64,000 nt of DNA. Source: Eledone cirrhosa. Its lineage: Eukaryota. Below the pieces are notes generated by a model that ran no database searches, was not told where the DNA came from, and worked only from the letters and a program-made list of their open reading frames with translations. A program made the position numbers and the translations under genes. Positions 10,371-31,630 of this stretch are shown piece after piece; the first letter of the stretch is position 1; every line of letters begins with the position of its first letter. Where the stretch lies: NCBI GenBank assembly GCA_964016885.1, contig OZ024751.1, forward strand, positions 8,804,001 to 8,868,000, in the 5' to 3' direction.

Positions 10371-10877
10371 CATAGCTCACCTATATATATAAAGGTGTAA
10401 GAAAATAAGTGAGAAAAGAAGGAGCTGCATGTAGGGGGCACACAAGAAGGTAGAATGTTAGTAAATGAATGACTGATGCATGAATGTACAAAAAAGGGGG
10501 GGGGGGGAACAGAGGGTTGTTCCTAGCGGAAAGACCCACAGTTCAGCACGCACACATGCGAGCAACTTATCAGTTTGTTATAGGAATTCGTGGCTGGAGG
10601 TGTGTCACTGAGGCTGGGGTTGGCTTCCTCTTCTTAATTGGAGAGTTTTTGTTGTTAATGTCACTGTTGTCGTCGTTGCTTTCCTCTTGTTAATGGTGAA
10701 GATTGCTGGTGAGATGTTGATGTACACGTATGCGTGTTGTTCATGTTAATGCCACAGTTGTTGTCGTTGCCTTCTTCTTGTTAATGGTGGTGGAGATGAA
10801 ACTACTACCAGGTCGGGCTGTCAGGTACTATGCTGAGGCTCGAGTGCCTTCTTTTACCGAAGATGCGGATGTCGATC

Positions 10878-11060
10878 GATTGGGAGTATCGGTAGAGGGT
10901 CGGACGCCATGCTTTCCAGCATAGTTACGTCCCTTTACGATCTGAGTTCAAATCCCGCCGAGGTTGACTTTGCCTTTCATCCTTACGGGGTCGATAAAAT
11001 AAAGTACCAGTAATGCACTGGGTAATTGCTGGCCTTGTGCCTAAAGTAGAAACAGTTATT
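10878..11060 (+). mobile_element. tRNA-derived SINE (octopus-type)
   Basis: A-box-like TGGGAGTATCGG, B box GAGTTCAAATCC, core GACTTTGCCTTTCATCCTTACGGGGTCGATAAAATAAAGTACCAG and an ATT tail. Many copies occur in the window. Confidence 0.85.
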
Positions 11061-11380
11061 ATCATGTTGCTGTCGCCTTCCTGACCGGAGATGCGGGTCA
11101 GTGACTTTCGGCATCATTTGGCAGCACAACGGCAAATAAATATATTCTCTATTTTGTTATTTTGGGGTCTTTTCTGAAATAAATGCATATAGAGTATGTT
11201 AGTTTTAATTATTTATATTTATTTTAAAGTAGATAGAGAGAACATATCCAACGACGAGGTACATATACATTTGTATATAACGAATAGCTGGTTTGACACA
11301 CACACATAAAAGAACAATCATGTCTCGGCGAATAGTCTCTCTCTCTCTCTCACTCACTCTATTTCCCTCTCTCTCCCTCA

Positions 11381-14490: not shown

Positions 14491-14637
14491 TTTCATATGG
14501 TGTTAAGATGAAAAGTAATACACATTTGTTGAGGTCATGACCCTTTGAAAGGAATGGTTGAAAGGTGTTAGTAGAAATGGCATAACAATCTATTAGGAAG
14601 GAAGGGGATTGTCAAACTGATAGTTGAATGTATCTTG

Positions 14638-14889
14638 TGTGGTTAGAGAAAGCTATCTCACTTACCGCTTTTCATAGGCGCCGCTAAATTCCACTGCTGG
14701 TCTCTCCTCTTCCACGTGCAACCAACTGCTTAACACCGGGAGCTGCCAAAACTCGCGTCCACACCGTTGCTGGTCACCACTAGAGAGGGCCATCTGCTGG
14801 CCCTTCCGGTCGAGCGTCCTTCCGGCCAAGCACCCTTCCGGTTGAGCACTCGCCCGCTTCCGGCCAACGCACGCCACACCATACCTACA
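14638..14889 (-). repeat. 3' LTR
   Basis: TGTGG...TACA, 252 bp, roughly ten substitutions versus 18557-18808 counted by eye. Confidence 0.95.
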
Positions 14890-15127
14890 CGCCCTGCTAA
14901 TCTCACGGATCAATTTCCCCCTCGTCCTTCTGCATATGAAAGTCTGCTGTCCAGGTTGGTGGTTTACGACTTCTTTGCGATCTCCGCAGAGTTGGGGCAG
15001 CACTTTGGGTTTCCTCTTCCTCGGAGTCCGTTGAAACAGTGATTCTACGGACATCCAGGACGTGACGTGGTACTCCGTCCACGGACACATTGTTCTGGGA
15101 ATTTACGGCCGTCACCGTTCCCCTTCC

Positions 15128-17700
15128 TCATTGACATGTGCAACGTGCATCTGGGGGCTTAAGCCAGACTTCTTCGCCCACCTGCACGAATGGACTCTCT
15201 CTCCCCACTGGCCGTCGTGGTGGCGTGCACGGGTGCCGTGACTCGTATCTGAATAGTGCTCTGTGTGGCACCGATTCCTCGACCTGTCCCACCCGAGAGG
15301 ACATGTTGTACCAGAACACTGCCTCCATTGGTGAGATATGGCCACGCTCCGCCATTGCCTTGATCGTCCGGTGGTGTCGCCCCACAATTCCATTCCCGCT
15401 TGGCGTTGAAGAAACGATCCACCTTCCATCCATCGAGCATCTCCCTCAGCGCCTCCGAGCGGAACGCTGCGCTGTTGTCCATCAGCAGTTCGTCCACAGG
15501 GCCCCGCACCAAGAACACCTCTCTCAACGTCCGCATGATTTCCTCGGCCGTTCCAGTCTTCATCTCCCTCCATATCGCCATCCGTCCTGGTCCACAGTCG
15601 ACCATCGAGAGGTACGTTCCATGTCGGTAGTGCGTTACATCCACTTCCAATCGCTTCCAGTCGTGATCCACCGGGAGGCTTCCCGTTTCGTGTACACCCG
15701 GGGCGGGATCAATGGGCTGACATCGGACGCAGCCTCTAACCACCCTTTGTACACTGTGTCTGTTAACGTGCGAGTCGATTCTCCTGGCTAGGAACAGGCT
15801 CCTATCCACTCCCATGTGGTGCATGTCATGCAACCCTTTCAGATCCGACTCGGTCAGCTGACACACGGCAGCTATCTCATCTTCTACCTCCTCCGGCGCT
15901 TCATTCCAGGCTTTCTTCACCCTAGTTAACATGTCCGCCCTATTTTTCTCTGAGTGCACGAAAACTACGCTCAACCTCAGGTCGAACTCGGTGGCCAGCT
16001 CTCCTAAAGTTCCCAGGCGGTGCTTTATCAGCATCTCCGCGACCCCTCTCATTCGCACTCTATTCTCACTGGTGAGCACTGATCTCACCCATCCGAGTAC
16101 TGTAGCCAAGTCGGTGCGTATCTCGATGGTGCGCAGTTCCCACCTCAGGGAGAGGTTCACCCCTTTCAACACTGCGTCCAACTCGGCCACATTGATGTGG
16201 TTGCAGTCCTCCTTCTTCCTAAGCCAGGCTGCATCCTCGACCTCAACACCTCCTATCTCCAACGTGACACCCAGCGCTATGCTGCTGACATCGCACCATA
16301 CGGTCCCGCTCTGTGATTTGGGAACATACCAGCATCCCCGCCCTGGGTCGTCGGCCTTCACCCTCCCCACGATCTCCTGCATCATGGCCACCGTCCTCTC
16401 TCCCACTCTGTCACTCCAAGTCACTCCTCCCGCTCGTCTCTTGACAGAGCTGCATGCCGTCCGGAGCCACCCAGCAATCGGGTAGTGACCCAACAACTTT
16501 TCACACACCGAGAAAAGCTCCCGCCTACTCATACTTGGGCCCAGTTCTGGAACTTCATTTGCCCTCTGGAATACCAAGACGCCCGTCCTGTCTCGCCGTA
16601 GCCTAAGTTCCAGCGCGGCTCCTCTCTCCAACGCTTCTGACGGCTTCGCAGCCAGTCCATACCCTTGTAAATGGCTCGTGACCTGCGCCGCCGACGCCAC
16701 AGACTCGTCCACTAGGATGTCGTCAATATAGGAGTTAGTGGCGCTCTTCATCTTGTCGGCCTTTACCAGAAAGGTCTTGAGGACCGCCACCATGATCTTC
16801 GGTGCGGAGCTCAGCTCGAAACCGAGCCTGGTCAGACATAATGTCCGGCCCTTATACCTGACCAGCTGATACTGCCAGAGCTTCTCATCTATATGCAATT
16901 GCAAGTATGCCGACTTTAGATCTACGATTGCTCTACCCCCTGTCATGCGTCTCCACTCACGCATGGTTTCCCCACAGACATCTGTGATCTCGCCACCCGT
17001 GTGGCATGACACGTACTCGTTCAGCTCCCGAAAGTCCAGCACCGGCCTCACCTTGTTCTTCGTGGGTTGCGCCACGGCTATTAACGGCAATACTCCGCAC
17101 TTCACCTCCTCTTTCCAGGGAAGCAGTATGCCCTCCTCAATCCATCTCTCTACCTCTCGCTCGAACTCGCTCCTAATGATTCCCTTCAATGTGTGTTGAT
17201 AGCAGTCCACTTTGGTCTTCAGTGCTCCAGTACCACTCAACAACCCATCGCATCCCATCGAACACGGCCTTGAAGTCTTTGTCCTGCACAGTGTAAGCGG
17301 GGTATTTCTCCTCGTGGGCCTTCTGGTTCTCCTGTCGCGCACTCACAGCGCATACCGATGCAGCGGCGCCAAACGACACACCGACGTTGTTCACTGTGAC
17401 GCCTCCTAGACGGCCAATTGCGTCCATGCCCATAACCACGCCGATCTCATCCACTACGCTGTCTACTACGATGGCAGAAAGCCTTATTTTCCTTCCCCGT
17501 ACCGCTATTTCCATCTCGCTGCGACCTCGGCATTCAATTTTCCTGCCGTCGACTGCCCTTACGCTGCTCTTCCCTCTCCACCTCTGCGCCACCCCGCAGT
17601 CACCAGTGTCGTCGTACAGCCCGTGTCCACGAGGGCTCGCTGTGGCTTTCCCCTCACGATGACTTCCACCACGGACAGCGCCTCTACTCGTAAGGGGCAA
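15128..17700 (-). pseudogene. pol (protease, RT, RNase H, DDE integrase), frameshifted
   Basis: ORF 15159-17342 has KVRPVLDFRELN, DLKSAYLQL, LGFELSSAP, YIDD, WCDVSS..HINVAELDAV..NRADMLTR, HHMGV..CVRC, DVTHY and LLMDNSAAF. Integrase continues in 15128-15433 (SGNGIVGRHHRTIK). Confidence 0.9.
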
Positions 17701-17719
17701 CTACCGGCGCAGTAGTGCC

Positions 17720-18430
17720 CCTTGGATCATTTCCCTGGTCGCAGTTAGTAGCGATGTGGCCTGGTCACTTACACCAGTAGCATATTATTTCCGGCCTTGA
17801 TTCTCTACAGTCTCTAACCATGTGTGGGCCCTGGCACCGAAAACAGCGACCACTAAACGTTCGCGGGCGACCGCGTGTCATGGTTGCCTCCTGTTCACCA
17901 TTTCACTGCCAGCTGTCTTGAGCGTCTGTAGTTGCTATCGCCGCAACACTCTTTTTGGCATCTTCTGCTATGATCCGGGCTTGTTCCACCAGTGAACGCA
18001 TTTCCATTTCTTTGTAACCCGGGACTTGCTGCAGTTTCACCGCTATGTCGTCTGGAAATCCATTTATGAACACCAACCGCACCTTGCGTTCGCATTCCAC
18101 CTGATATCCAGCCAACATAGCCAATCGCCGTATTTCGCTGCGAAAATGTCAACGCGTTCACCGTTCCATCTAATTCTTGCCAGCTTAGCGAAAGCGGCTA
18201 ACGGTCCTTCTACGAATGCTACTATCATGCGCCTCTCAATCATTTGCGCATCTCTTTGGCTGTGTTCGTCCAACTCAAGGAAGAGTACCCCCCCCCCCCC
18301 CGAGGTACAGTGCCATGAGGCCAGCCACATCTTCTATCTTCTGCAAGCTTGCGCCCAGCCGGACTTTTCGCAGCCAAGCGACAACATTACCTTCCCCGGT
18401 AAATGCCCTGATAGCTTAGCTTGTTCGTAG
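17720..18430 (-). pseudogene. gag-like ORF with CCHC zinc knuckles, frameshifted
   Basis: Fragments 18064-18330 and 17903-18124, followed by CFRCQGPHMVRDC and a second damaged knuckle. Confidence 0.75.
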
Positions 18431-18544
18431 TCTAGTCGCCATCTGCTAATTTGTCTTACGGTACGTGATAAAAAAAACAACAGACTCCTCTGTTTTTCCA
18501 GTAGCTTTTTTTTTTTTTTTTTCAATCAGATCGCAGTTTCCAGT

Positions 18545-18556
18545 GCCGAAATAGCT
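18545..18556 (-). promoter_or_regulatory. Putative primer-binding site complementary to tRNA-Phe nt 1-12
   Basis: AGCTATTTCGGC directly abuts the 5' LTR. Its complement GCCGAAATAGCT is the 5' end of metazoan tRNA-Phe(GAA). Confidence 0.65.
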
Positions 18557-18808
18557 TATGGTTAGAAAAAGCTATCTCACTTACCGCTTTTCACAGGCGC
18601 CGCTAAATTCCACTGCTGGTCTCTCCTCTTCCACGTGCAACCAACTGCTTAACACCGGGAGCTGCCAAAACTCGCGTCCACACCGTTGCTGGTCACCACT
18701 AGAGAGGGCCATCTGCTGGCCCTTCCGGTTGAGCGTCCTTCCGGCCGAGCACCCTTCCGGTCGAGCACACCCCCGCTTCCGGCCACCGCACGCCACACCA
18801 TACCCACA
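18557..18808 (-). repeat. 5' LTR
   Basis: Direct repeat of 14638-14889. Confidence 0.95.
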
Positions 18809-19239
18809 TCTTGTATAGTGAATTTAAAAGGAATGTCAAAATAAATGGTGATTAGTGTTGTATTGAATTTTAAGGTGAATATAAATTAATGTTATTGCTA
18901 GGAAAGATAGTATATTAAAAGATGAAAATTATAATAAGATAATGTGATATAGTAATGCGATAATATACAACTTAACCAACACAATATAGTACGGTGCGGT
19001 AAATTGCACTCAGTATAATATATCTTATTATACGCTCTAAAATATTACTAAGTATGTTTATGCATAAACTATCAAACTCAGATAAGTACATGTTGGCATA
19101 GTTAAAACACATAAATGTCATAGTCTACAAATTGCATATATTCACACTCCATATATAGAGAGGTACAGTTATATTGATATATAACCAAAATATACATACG
19201 TGCAAATAGATGCAAACCTAAATACACACCCACACGCAT

Positions 19240-22762: not shown

Positions 22763-22980
22763 TGGATTGGCAGTATAGATAGAGCGTCGGGCAACTTGTT
22801 TTGCAGCACAGAGTTACGCCCCTTTATGTTATGTGTTCACATACCGCAGAGTTTAGCTTTGCTTTTCATACTTTTGAGGTCGATAAAATAAAGTACAAGT
22901 AACGACCTGGAGTCCACTTAATCGACTTTGTCTCCAACAAAATTGTTGACCTTGTGCCTAAATCAGAAACATTTATTACT
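22763..22980 (+). mobile_element. tRNA-derived SINE, diverged
   Basis: TGGATTGGCAGTAT..GTCGATAAAATAAAGTAC..TTGTGCCTAAA..GAAAC. Confidence 0.75.
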
Positions 22981-23094
22981 AACTATTGACTAGGCGGGAT
23001 GTCTGAAACTTTTGTTGAATATATAGGAGTGTTGTAACACAAAATCTGATTGAAACTGATACAAAATTGGGCTTATGTAAATCATGTTAATAAA

Positions 23095-23305
23095 AAATGC
23101 TGCTGATCTTGCAGGGAAGGGCCCTAATGTGCAGTTCAGGTGACTTGGGTATTAATCCTAGTGTTCCTATTACCACAGGGATAGTGTTGTTGCCTTCCTC
23201 CACAAGCGGTTGATCTCTATATCCAGGTATTTTTACTTTGACAGTTTTCCATTGCTTTTGCAGATATATTCTTGTCAGCTGGTACAGCAGTATCTATAAG
23301 GCTAC
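23095..23305 (-). mobile_element. RLE-domain fragment of an R4/Dong-like element
   Basis: Minus strand reads LIDTAVPADKNISAK..IEINRLW..PVVIGTLGLIPK, paralleling the C-terminus of ORF 397-1080. Confidence 0.75.
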
Positions 23306-23312
23306 ATTACGA

Positions 23313-23660
23313 TTAACGCCGAGGTTAGCTTTGCTTTTCATCCTTACAGGGTCGATAAAATAAAGTACCAGTAATTCACTAGCGTCAATTTAATCGACGT
23401 TCCCCTCTCTCCAAATTGCTGACCTTGTGCCTTAAGTAGAAACATTTATTATCATTATTATTTTTATCAAGGGCGGTGGATTGGCAGTATCGGTAGAGGG
23501 TCGGACGCCATGCTTTGTAGCATAGAGTTACGGCCCTTTTACTTCTGAATTCAAATCACGCCGAGGTTAACTTTGTCTTTCATCCTTACGGGTTCGATCA
23601 AATAAAGTACCAGTAATGCACTGTAATAATTACTGGCCAAATGTAGAAACAATTATTATT
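23313..23660 (+). mobile_element. Two adjacent SINEs (partial 23313-23450; full 23471-23660)
   Basis: SINE core repeated. The second copy starts GGCGGTGGATTGGCAGTATCGG. Confidence 0.85.
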
Positions 23661-23981
23661 TTCATCAATATTATTATTATACGATTTTATATATATATTC
23701 ATCGTCTTCATCCTTATTATCAATCCCAGCATATTCTTTGTAATTCTATGAATTACTTATACATTTAACTTGTTTCCATCGAAATATTTGGCAGACCCCA
23801 GCATCTTATCTCCAGTAAAATATATTATATTGATTATATTCTAGAAATCTCTATCAGCTCGCCCATATCTCCTCAAATGGTTACATTTAGATTCACTTGC
23901 AGTACAGACATCTGGTTGGCTGCTACATATACAAAAATGCATTTATTTCCCCCTTTATCAAATTTAGATTCTAATGCCCTT

Positions 23982-24360
23982 GGTGAATTGGCAGTATCGG
24001 TAGAGGGTCGGACGCCATGCTTTGACGCATAGAGTTACGGCCCTTGCCATTCTGAGTTCAAATCCCGCCGAGGTTAACTTTGCCTTTCATCCTTACGGGG
24101 TCGATAAAATAAAGTACCAGTAATACACTGAGCAATTGCTGGCCTTGTGCCAAAAGTAGAAACAATTATTAAAGGCGGTGGATTGGCAGAATTGGTAGAG
24201 GGTTGGACATGCTTTCCAGCATAGTTATGTCCCTTTACGATCTGAGTTCAAATCCCGCCGAGGTTAACTTTGCCTTTCATGCTTACAAGGTCGATAAAAT
24301 AAAGTACCAGTAATGCACTGTTTAATTGCTGGCCTTGTGCCGAAAGTAGAAACAATTATT
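23982..24360 (+). mobile_element. Head-to-tail SINE dimer (23982-24170, 24174-24360)
   Basis: Two complete units with A/B boxes separated only by the ATT tail. Confidence 0.88.
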
Positions 24361-24670
24361 AGAGGAAATAAAATAACGTATATATAAATGTTCGTATTGT
24401 ATATTTAATAATATACTGTATGTTTATTTTAAAACATTTTGAAGGCCTTTCGCTATGAATATAAGGTCGTGTCTATCTTCAGCAAAAACAAAGGGAAATA
24501 ACCAATGATCGTTTCGCACTTTTTAGTGGTTATCAAGTTTATACATCCCTTGTTTTTGCTGTGAGCTGTGTAGACGCTGGATTCTTAAAGAATTACAATT
24601 AGGTTTATGAGCTGTTTAAACTCATTAACTTACAGAGCGATTGCCGACCCACCAAGAAATAGAAATTTGA

Positions 24671-29751: not shown

Positions 29752-31422
29752 TTATTCTTTGTTGCTGTAGAAGGGGAAGATTTTAAAGTTGGGTAGTGTC
29801 ATTCCTGCGCAGTTCGCAATATGGCTGCTCAAGGGGATTTTTCTTGTGCTAGCGTCCCGGATTTGTTGGCGGTGGATGGTCATTCTTTTGCGTAATGCGG
29901 TGCCCGTCTGTCCTATGTAGTTGTGTTTGCACCCACCGCAAGTTATTGCGTAAATCAAGTTCTCCGAGTTGCAGGTGAAATTGTTTTTTACTGTAAATGT
30001 TTGGCCATCTTTAAATGTAAATGTTTGTCCTTCAGTGAGGTAGAGGCACGTTCCACAGTTTGTTCTACCACATTTGGTAACTGTAGGGTTGAGGATTGGT
30101 TTGGGTATATTTGGTCCAGTGAGAATGCGTTTTAGTGATTTGGGTTGTCTTTTACTTTTAAGGATCTTGTGTGTTTCAAGAATAGACTTCATTTTTACAT
30201 CTTTAAGTAGGATTGGGAGGTTTTTGTGTAGGTGATCAAACATTTCGATATTTCTGGGGTTGAAAGTGGATACATATGGCAGGGCGTTGAGTGTGGTTTT
30301 CTGTTTTGGATTGTTAAGTTGATGGGGATTTAGGTGTTTTGCCCTGTCTATTCCATTGTTGATTATTTCAAGTGGAAAGGCTCTTAAGATAAGGGTGTCT
30401 TTTAGTTCCTTTAGTCTTTGCTCCCGTTTAGGTGGATCTGATACTATGGTACATATACGTTTGGCCAAATTGTAAGGAATGTTAAGTTTTGTATGTTTTG
30501 GGTGACTTGATGTGAAAAAGAGGTATTGCTTGGAATCTGTGGGTTTATAGAATATATCTGTATCTAATTTCCCGTCTATTACAGAGATGAGAATATCCAA
30601 GAAGGCTATTTCCTTGGGATTGGATTCCATTGTGAATTGTATGTTATTATCTATGTTGTTTATCATGTTTTTAAACATAGTAAGTGAGTTCATGTCTTCT
30701 TGCCATAGGATAAAGCAGTCGTCTAGATATCTTTTCCAATTGGCTTTGAGGTGTGTGTGGAAAGAGTCTCCAAATAAGAGAAGGGACTGACTGTATATTT
30801 GTTGTTCATGGAATCCCATGACTAGGTTGGCATATGTGGGTGCTACTTTCGTGCCCATTGCCGTACCTGATACTTGTCTGTATGTTGAACCATTGAATGT
30901 GAAGTAGTTATTTTGTAGGATAAAGCGGAGTCCGTCAGTGATAAAATCTTTGTTGATGCGTGTCGGTATTTTTGATGGGTGTGTGTTAAGCCAGTATTGG
31001 ACTGCTGTTATTCCATAGTTGTGGGGTATGTTTGTGTAGAGGTTTATTACGTCAAAGGAGACAAGAATTGTATTTGCACTTACTGTTTTAGGGAGGTGTT
31101 TCAGCATGTCAAGGTCATCTCGTATGTAGCTCTGTATATGTTGTAGAAAGGGTTTCAGTAGGATGTCCAGAAAGTTGCTAAGTCTGTGGGTTTCACATGT
31201 AGGGCCTGCTATAATTGGCCTGAGTTTTAGGTCTTCTGGTGGTGTTAGTTCAATGTAATTGTTGGTTGAGGTGTCACATGCATCGTTTATGGGTTTACAT
31301 TTGTGGAGTTTCGGTAAGCCGTAAAAAGAGCTTGTATTGCATTTGAAGTGGCTTATATAGTTAAACTCTTTTGTGGTTAAGCTGTTGCGGTATTTATTCA
31401 GTAAGGTCAAAAGGTTCCCCAT
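29752..31422 (-). CDS. PLE reverse transcriptase plus GIY-YIG endonuclease (5'-truncated, 556 aa open)
   Basis: FYGLPKLHK, LRPII, SFDVINLYTNIP, GTAMGTKVAPTYANL, RYLDD, FLDI, YKPTD, C..C linker, LIYAITC..C..YIGQTG..RMTIHR. Confidence 0.92.
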   Translation of the reverse strand: MGNLLTLLNKYRNSLTTKEFNYISHFKCNTSSFYGLPKLHKCKPINDACDTSTNNYIELTPPEDLKLRPIIAGPTCETHRLSNFLDILLKPFLQHIQSYIRDDLDMLKHLPKTVSANTILVSFDVINLYTNIPHNYGITAVQYWLNTHPSKIPTRINKDFITDGLRFILQNNYFTFNGSTYRQVSGTAMGTKVAPTYANLVMGFHEQQIYSQSLLLFGDSFHTHLKANWKRYLDDCFILWQEDMNSLTMFKNMINNIDNNIQFTMESNPKEIAFLDILISVIDGKLDTDIFYKPTDSKQYLFFTSSHPKHTKLNIPYNLAKRICTIVSDPPKREQRLKELKDTLILRAFPLEIINNGIDRAKHLNPHQLNNPKQKTTLNALPYVSTFNPRNIEMFDHLHKNLPILLKDVKMKSILETHKILKSKRQPKSLKRILTGPNIPKPILNPTVTKCGRTNCGTCLYLTEGQTFTFKDGQTFTVKNNFTCNSENLIYAITCGGCKHNYIGQTGTALRKRMTIHRQQIRDASTRKIPLSSHIANCAGMTLPNFKIFPFYSNKE

Positions 31423-31630
31423 TGTTTTGGTGTGTTTGTAGTTTTCTGTTTTTTTATAGTATGTGTTGTTTTCTAAAATGTTAAGTGCGAGGGTCCTATT
31501 GTAGACAGAAAAGCACCCGAGCTGCTACCAAGATGAAAACTACTGTGAAAACCCACAATGAATTTTATACTTGAATTTTCAAATCTCAAATTTTAACTCT
31601 TCTTATTATTAATTTTTCTTAATATTAATC

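Follow-up and report, generated by a model that had tools for sequence, protein, structure and literature searches.

A primer-binding site complementary to nucleotides 1-12 of host tRNA in an LTR retrotransposon lineage of Eledone cirrhosa

Among the traits that define LTR retroelements is the choice of primer, and three primer types are listed for them in the available text of PMC6317226: a whole tRNA, a half tRNA and a self-primer. Half-tRNA use is placed only in Copia lineages in the accessible parts of PMC6317226 and PMC10886601, with Drosophila copia, yeast Ty5, plant Osser, Bryco, Gymco-II, Bianca and fungal Helenus/Copia as examples (PMC6317226, PMC10886601, PMC5371799). For Ty5, the host nuclease RNase P is reported in the available portion of PMC5371799. 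In Tf1, the RNA's first 11 bases are paired with the site, and the RNase H cut falls between bases 11 and 12, according to the accessible text of PMC7175516. Here we describe a lineage of LTR retrotransposons in which the site beside the 5' LTR is complementary to the first 12 nucleotides of a tRNA.

Structure of the element and its primer-binding site

The window is the whole stretch of DNA that was analysed, 64,000 nucleotides of the Eledone cirrhosa genome (GCA_964016885.1, contig OZ024751.1, positions 8,804,001 to 8,868,000). It carries an LTR retrotransposon of 4171 bp (~4.17 kb) on the minus strand at 18808..14638, with the following features in window coordinates.

18809..18813, minus strand: upstream copy of the target site duplication (TSD) CAAGA, matching CAAGA on the other flank
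18557..18808, minus strand: 5' LTR, 252 bp, starting with TGT and ending with ATA in the window copy and with ACA in other copies
18570..18579, minus strand: U5 stretch with predicted pairing to the first 10 bases of the primer site, including two G-U pairs
18545..18556, minus strand: primer-binding site AGCTATTTCGGC, next to the LTR and complementary to tRNA-Phe(GAA) nt 1-12
17800..18442 (end approximate), minus strand: gag remnant, in pieces, with frameshifts and stops
17173..17700, minus strand: ORF of the pol protease region, disrupted by frameshifts and stops
15159..17342, minus strand: pol open frame of 727 codons with RT (YIDD), DUF7047, RNase H and integrase
14890..14904, minus strand: polypurine tract, decayed in the window copy, with CG before the 3' LTR
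14638..14889, minus strand: 3' LTR, TGT..ACA
14633..14637, minus strand: downstream copy of the TSD CAAGA

The two LTRs are of the TG..CA type, 252 bp each, and differ at 10 of 252 positions; the ..ATA end is that of the window copy's 5' LTR, and ..ACA is found in its 3' LTR and in all 29 other copies retrieved by DNA search. A CCHC-like knuckle was read by eye near 17850-17810 in the gag remnant. Neither the gag pieces nor the protease-region ORF of the window gave a Pfam match; gag ORFs of relatives match Retrotrans_gag or zf-CCHC, and gag-asp_proteas was matched in 7 of 16 aligned lineage members. The end of the integrase runs on in another frame (15128-15445) in the window copy. RT, RNase H and integrase were confirmed by fold search and by PDB sequence search, neither of which gave a lineage placement, and the fold model of pol matches retroviral and caulimoviral RT structures. 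An A-run follows the primer site (18498-18524, minus strand), as it does before gag in most host families. Elsewhere in the window, a second, unrelated RT frame (RVT_1) lies at 29752-31524 on the minus strand, and a dispersed, SINE-like family of short repeats occurs at 10874-11061 and 22763-24361.

Read on the minus strand, the 12-mer AGCTATTTCGGC occupies window 18556..18545 and adjoins the 5' LTR without a spacer, the LTR border being fixed by the 3' LTR (14889..14638) and by the 5-bp CAAGA on both flanks. A TGG site, the complement of the tRNA CCA end, was absent after the 5' LTR in the window element and in the lineage members checked; a TGG-type site stands at the aligned LTR end in 7 of 10 host gypsy controls (L409-L418), and an ordinary gypsy control from a metagenome (L131) has one behind a 2-base spacer. 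The first-pass annotation had placed the 12-mer directly after the 5' LTR with no TGG, which agrees with the border so defined. It had also stated that metazoan tRNA-Phe(GAA) begins with the complement of the site, and the host tRNA-Phe(GAA) genes found with ARAGORN do start GCCGAAATAGCT, making the site an exact 12/12 complement of host nt 1-12.

The tRNA-Phe start pattern had 219 matches in the genome versus 0 for its control. CA followed by the 12-mer occurs 527 times versus once for the reversed control, and the 12-mer occurs once in the window. By arithmetic, one given tRNA start would be matched at 12/12 positions with a probability of ~6e-8; the match is not a chance one. The site is the only stretch of more than 8 nt in the window element that is complementary to mature tRNA-Phe, and it covers exactly nt 1-12; nt 13 of the tRNA is a C, which cannot pair with the A that ends the LTR. 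The longest tRNA match was likewise nt 1-12 in 14 of 14 elements examined (the window element and 13 further ones), among which no site complementary to the anticodon arm was found. Nucleotide 12 falls in the D-stem, not in the D-loop. G9 is usually methylated in tRNA, and methylation would block pairing; all tRNAs that these elements would use have A at position 9. The host genome also contains a long tandem array of tRNA-Phe and tRNA-Asn genes with a period of ~1.26 kb (C4, near 117.37-117.57 Mb; L034-L040), and similar arrays of intron-bearing tRNA-Met genes (C2) and tRNA-Lys(CTT) genes (C4).

Copies in the host genome and distant relatives

The 3.0-Gb genome was searched with DNA and with protein. 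Among 30 copies found with a DNA query that included the primer site itself, the site is exact in 26 and carries one transition in 4. A protein-only search pointed to 58 places, of which 31 were retrieved and examined: 22 have the exact site, 5 have one change and 4 have no recognisable LTR end before pol. Paralogues keep the 12-mer, as the first-pass annotation had expected. The TSD is 5 bp long in 22 of the 28 protein-found copies where it was measurable. When 30 of the 527 loci with CA and the 12-mer were compared, 23 had the LTR of the window element, 3 formed a second group and 4 stood alone. Downstream of the site, 27 of 30 pattern-found loci have clade protein, and the base that follows the site is not constant. 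The same 12-mer is carried by at least four LTR groups, from loci selected by pattern, that fail to align with one another and differ at base 13. A Lys-type site gave 0 matches in the genome for the pattern tried, and no LTR-LTR junction or primer remnant was present in four contig-only runs.

Distant relatives were taken from metagenomes as 63 loci chosen by RT peptides alone, with 23-70% identity (mostly 38-56%). A site of the tRNA-5'-end type stands directly behind the LTR end, with 0-22 bases between it and the ATG of gag, in 42 of the 63 (31 found by pattern, 11 picked by eye). The other 21 comprise 18 loci without DNA upstream of gag, two ordinary gypsy elements (L131, with its TGG site, being one) and one weak match. 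Two of three extra contigs also carry the site, and the third begins inside gag. All 44 of the RT-found relatives with readable DNA before gag thus have a site of the same type. L073, at a contig end, is a partial case, in which just 7 matching bases come after an LTR-like end; L076/L082 and L088/L089 are near-duplicates among the metagenome loci. Conservation in the 42 sites is strongest beside the LTR and ends at position 13: the last LTR base is A in 42/42, site positions 2-4 are invariant, positions 1 and 5 agree in 41/42 each, positions 7-9 are variable, position 12 is C in 37 and position 13 is mixed. This is the pattern expected if the primer's 3' end is tRNA nt 12 and the acceptor-stem positions track the tRNA.

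Exact complements of tRNA nt 1-12 make up 14 of the 44 sites, spread over Phe, Lys(CTT), Lys(TTT) and elongator Met; host tRNA-Phe is matched exactly by 9 of 44. For Met and Lys, the matching tRNAs are those of the Eledone genome or of human, not those of the metagenome loci's own hosts. The L104 site is exact for host tRNA-Lys(CTT), differing from the Phe site at 4 positions, and the L112 site is exact for host elongator tRNA-Met, with 5 changes, one of which adjoins the LTR; in both, every change restores pairing. Three further sites (L083, L106, L376) are exact for human tRNA-Lys3 (Lys(TTT), sequence per PMC8715211), the human sequence being used because host tRNA-Lys(TTT) is represented by one divergent copy only. 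It had been anticipated that other families would use other tRNA 5' ends, and these sites do so in the same register. Another 18 of 44 sites are of a GCCGCG/GCCGTG type that is complementary to host tRNA-Phe at only 10 of 12 positions. Such 12-mers start tRNAs (Thr, Phe and others) in 22 of 26 viral-collection loci, where the tRNA scans returned mostly prokaryote-type tRNAs and assigned no eukaryotic tRNA to these sites. The remaining 12 of 44 match no checked tRNA exactly, and six of these (L076, L082, L097, L123, L130, L378) lose register at the LTR-distal end of the site, which is the would-be 5' end of the primer.

Homologue searches returned as named relatives only Argonauta, Oratosquilla, Aplysia and a few bacterial bins, and no relatives were found in viral contigs. 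The members on short contigs in bacterial metagenome bins (L376-L378) belong to the eukaryotic lineage and are probably misbinned. Many of the metagenome members L071-L133 are contigs of ~4 kb that have terminal repeats and represent either circles with one LTR or repeats that were collapsed, and gag and pol are in separate frames in most of those read. A quick tree of 44 rows was built from clade members only, leaving out eight site-bearing loci with short RT and the gypsy control; its resolution is too poor for primer switches to be counted from it.

Proposed priming and alternative explanations

The site holds its position and register, is conserved throughout the clade and switches among tRNA 5' ends. 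The lineage quite probably primes minus-strand DNA from a 5' tRNA fragment ending at or near nt 12, with the site abutting the LTR. The reading of the first-pass annotation, priming from a tRNA cut in the D-arm, draws support from the site, its register, the paralogues and the tRNA switches; from these we infer the fragment, the cut and the nuclease. None of the outcomes it had named as contrary (other copies missing the 12-mer, a TGG-type or self-priming site, a different start of host tRNA-Phe) appeared. Under this proposal, the element RNA would displace the 3' acceptor strand of the tRNA and open the D-stem, probably helped by the zinc knuckle of Gag, and a 12-bp duplex would form between the site and tRNA nt 1-12. 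A cut after nt 12 would place a 3'-OH beside the last LTR base, and reverse transcriptase would extend the cut 5' fragment.

By analogy, and at somewhat less than an even chance, we favour a cut at the RNA duplex end by the RNase H that the element itself encodes, because the geometry equals that of Tf1, where a paired 5' RNA end is cut at the end of the duplex. An RNase H domain is present in the pol of the lineage, and Tf1-like cleavage by it is a prediction. A host nuclease as in Ty5, or a fragment that exists beforehand, would be nearly as likely. It is a tentative, rather doubtful proposition that this is an unnamed, widespread LTR lineage of superfamily level whose own RNase H cuts host tRNA after nt 12, Tf1-style in trans, as a fourth kind of primer. 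If true, an RNase H cut in trans would link tRNA priming to self-priming and make the element a source of 12-nt tRNA 5' fragments.

Two spacer bases often come after the polypurine tract, so the same pairing could serve a primer that ends at tRNA nt 10; the two LTR-adjacent bases would then be copied as DNA and become a 2-nt overhang trimmed by integrase. Many members do have a G-run and two spacer bases, often with a pyrimidine, before the LTR, and the 2-base spacer of the canonical gypsy L131 fits as well. However, complementarity to tRNA nt 11-12 is maintained at both bases throughout, and in L112 the first of them changes along with tRNA nt 12; we consider this version improbable. More improbable still is that the site only anchors an intact tRNA, with priming from its CCA end at a second site or from a retron-like 2'-OH branch. 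Retrons use branched (2'-OH) priming. Ty3 has a split primer site in the available text of PMC5371799, but in the elements described here pairing goes precisely as far as the LTR border, none of the 102 loci scanned (63 metagenome, 39 host) holds a complement of the final 9 bases of mature tRNA-Phe, and no second complementary stretch is common in position to the 14 elements examined. That the primer is some other RNA ending in a tRNA-like 12-mer, such as a tRNA-derived SINE or an aborted transcript, would suit the many tRNA-like repeats of the genome, and DNA sequence alone does not distinguish the source molecule. Yet the sites are exact matches, always from nt 1, to the starts of three different true tRNA genes of the genome, which leaves this source very improbable.

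Least credible of all is self-priming as in Tf1, in which the element's own LTR RNA would pair with the site, an idea already disfavoured by the tRNA switches. A U5 stretch does pair with 10-11 bases of the site in the window element, L051, L065 and L069 (4 of 9 host sequences), but none of the 42 outside loci tested and none of the host groups L050, L054/63/67 and L068 has such a stem, and the best self-match within 700 bases upstream covers 4-9 of 12 bases at scattered places. A Tf1-type complement of 10-12 site bases in the 5' LTR was not found beyond this lineage-limited stem with its G-U pairs. The stem is also set back ~13 bases from the LTR end, which presumably would leave a primer cut in it unable to copy the rest of U5. 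The predicted pairing of 18570-18579 with 18547-18556 is better read as a local hairpin, which in the window lineage may gate access to the site or compete with tRNA binding.

A splice-donor-like motif was seen in the same region (18579-18585, minus strand), 25-28 bases before the LTR end. It is common to L051, L054, L063, L065, L067, L068 and L069, host LTR groups that otherwise do not align, and is mostly absent in outside relatives; splicing from it would take out the primer site.

Significance, classification and comparison with known systems

The site is real and clade-wide, and its sequence is best explained by priming from a very short tRNA 5' fragment, a variant of truncated-tRNA priming. 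No report of a site for tRNA nt 1-12 was found in the literature searched, outside which lie Repbase Reports, most subscription journals and supplements; three papers containing the 12-mer are, by title, studies of tRNA modification. The available text of PMC6238403, PMC8556966, PMC7472051, PMC12859917, PMC13524379 and PMC6934838 describes no such site. A clade-wide site for tRNA nt 1-12 would be a fourth type beside the three listed in the accessible part of PMC6317226. It would give very short 5' tRNA fragments a concrete role and provide a route, open to testing, that links tRNA priming with the self-priming of Tf1. Searches restricted to tRNA 3' ends, as in the methods available from PMC6317226 and PMC13524379, would score such elements as lacking a primer site, and these elements would presumably escape 3'-tRF silencing at the primer site.

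The element has the paired LTRs, TSD, polypurine tract and RT-RNase H-integrase of an LTR retrotransposon. It shares with Ty3/Gypsy (Metaviridae) gag and pol, the order PR-RT-RH-IN, TG..CA LTRs, a 5-bp TSD and a polypurine tract. Unlike Ty3/Gypsy, it has DUF7047 (16/16 members) and no TGG site; the gypsy RNase H models PF17917/PF17919 matched 0 of 16 members, with the controls L409 and L131 positive. The RNase H of the lineage matches RVT_3/RNase_H models and has a HINxAEL motif, which is reminiscent of DIRS elements. DUF7047 occupies alignment residues 217-274, flanked by the RT palm and RNase H; the model shows it as helical, which is consistent with an RT thumb. The 16 members matched 13 families, which did not include Peptidase_A17 (PF05380) of BEL/Pao or related Pao domains; the host genome yielded no BEL element usable as a reference. 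Copia order, with integrase before RT, was not seen either, as in the open frame rve lies downstream of DUF7047 and RNase H.

Troyka/Kuafuorterviruses are described in the available text of PMC12440569 and PMC11673190 as having CG..CG ends, 3-bp TSDs, an xADD motif and lengths of 5-6 kb; primers are not mentioned in the accessible text of PMC12440569. Going by those descriptions, the lineage resembles Troyka as an LTR lineage of aquatic animals with gypsy-like order outside the usual groups, and differs from it in TG..CA ends, a 5-bp TSD, YIDD and a length of ~4.2 kb. Membership in Troyka/Kuafuorterviridae, as so characterised, is ruled out by the termini, the TSD length and YIDD versus xADD. 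Judged by its sequence features, the lineage is marked by DUF7047 and fails both gypsy and Troyka markers; it could be one of the MolGy or PolGy clades.

Among the priming systems, Tf1/sushi, as far as the available sources describe it, has in common with the proposed mode that the extreme 5' end of an RNA is paired with the primer site for 11-12 bases and that the duplex end is where it has to be cut. In Tf1 this RNA is the element's own mRNA, whereas the partner in the lineage described here would be a tRNA in trans, with no self-primer found. The half-tRNA systems, in the accessible accounts, are alike in that a 3'-truncated tRNA, rather than the CCA end, pairs beside the LTR. Their cut lies in the anticodon arm, whereas the site of the Eledone lineage covers nt 1-12 and the cut would fall in the D-stem. 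Unlike in the half-tRNA systems so described, the tRNAs matched in this lineage are those for Phe, Lys and elongator Met, and the domain order is PR-RT-RH-IN.
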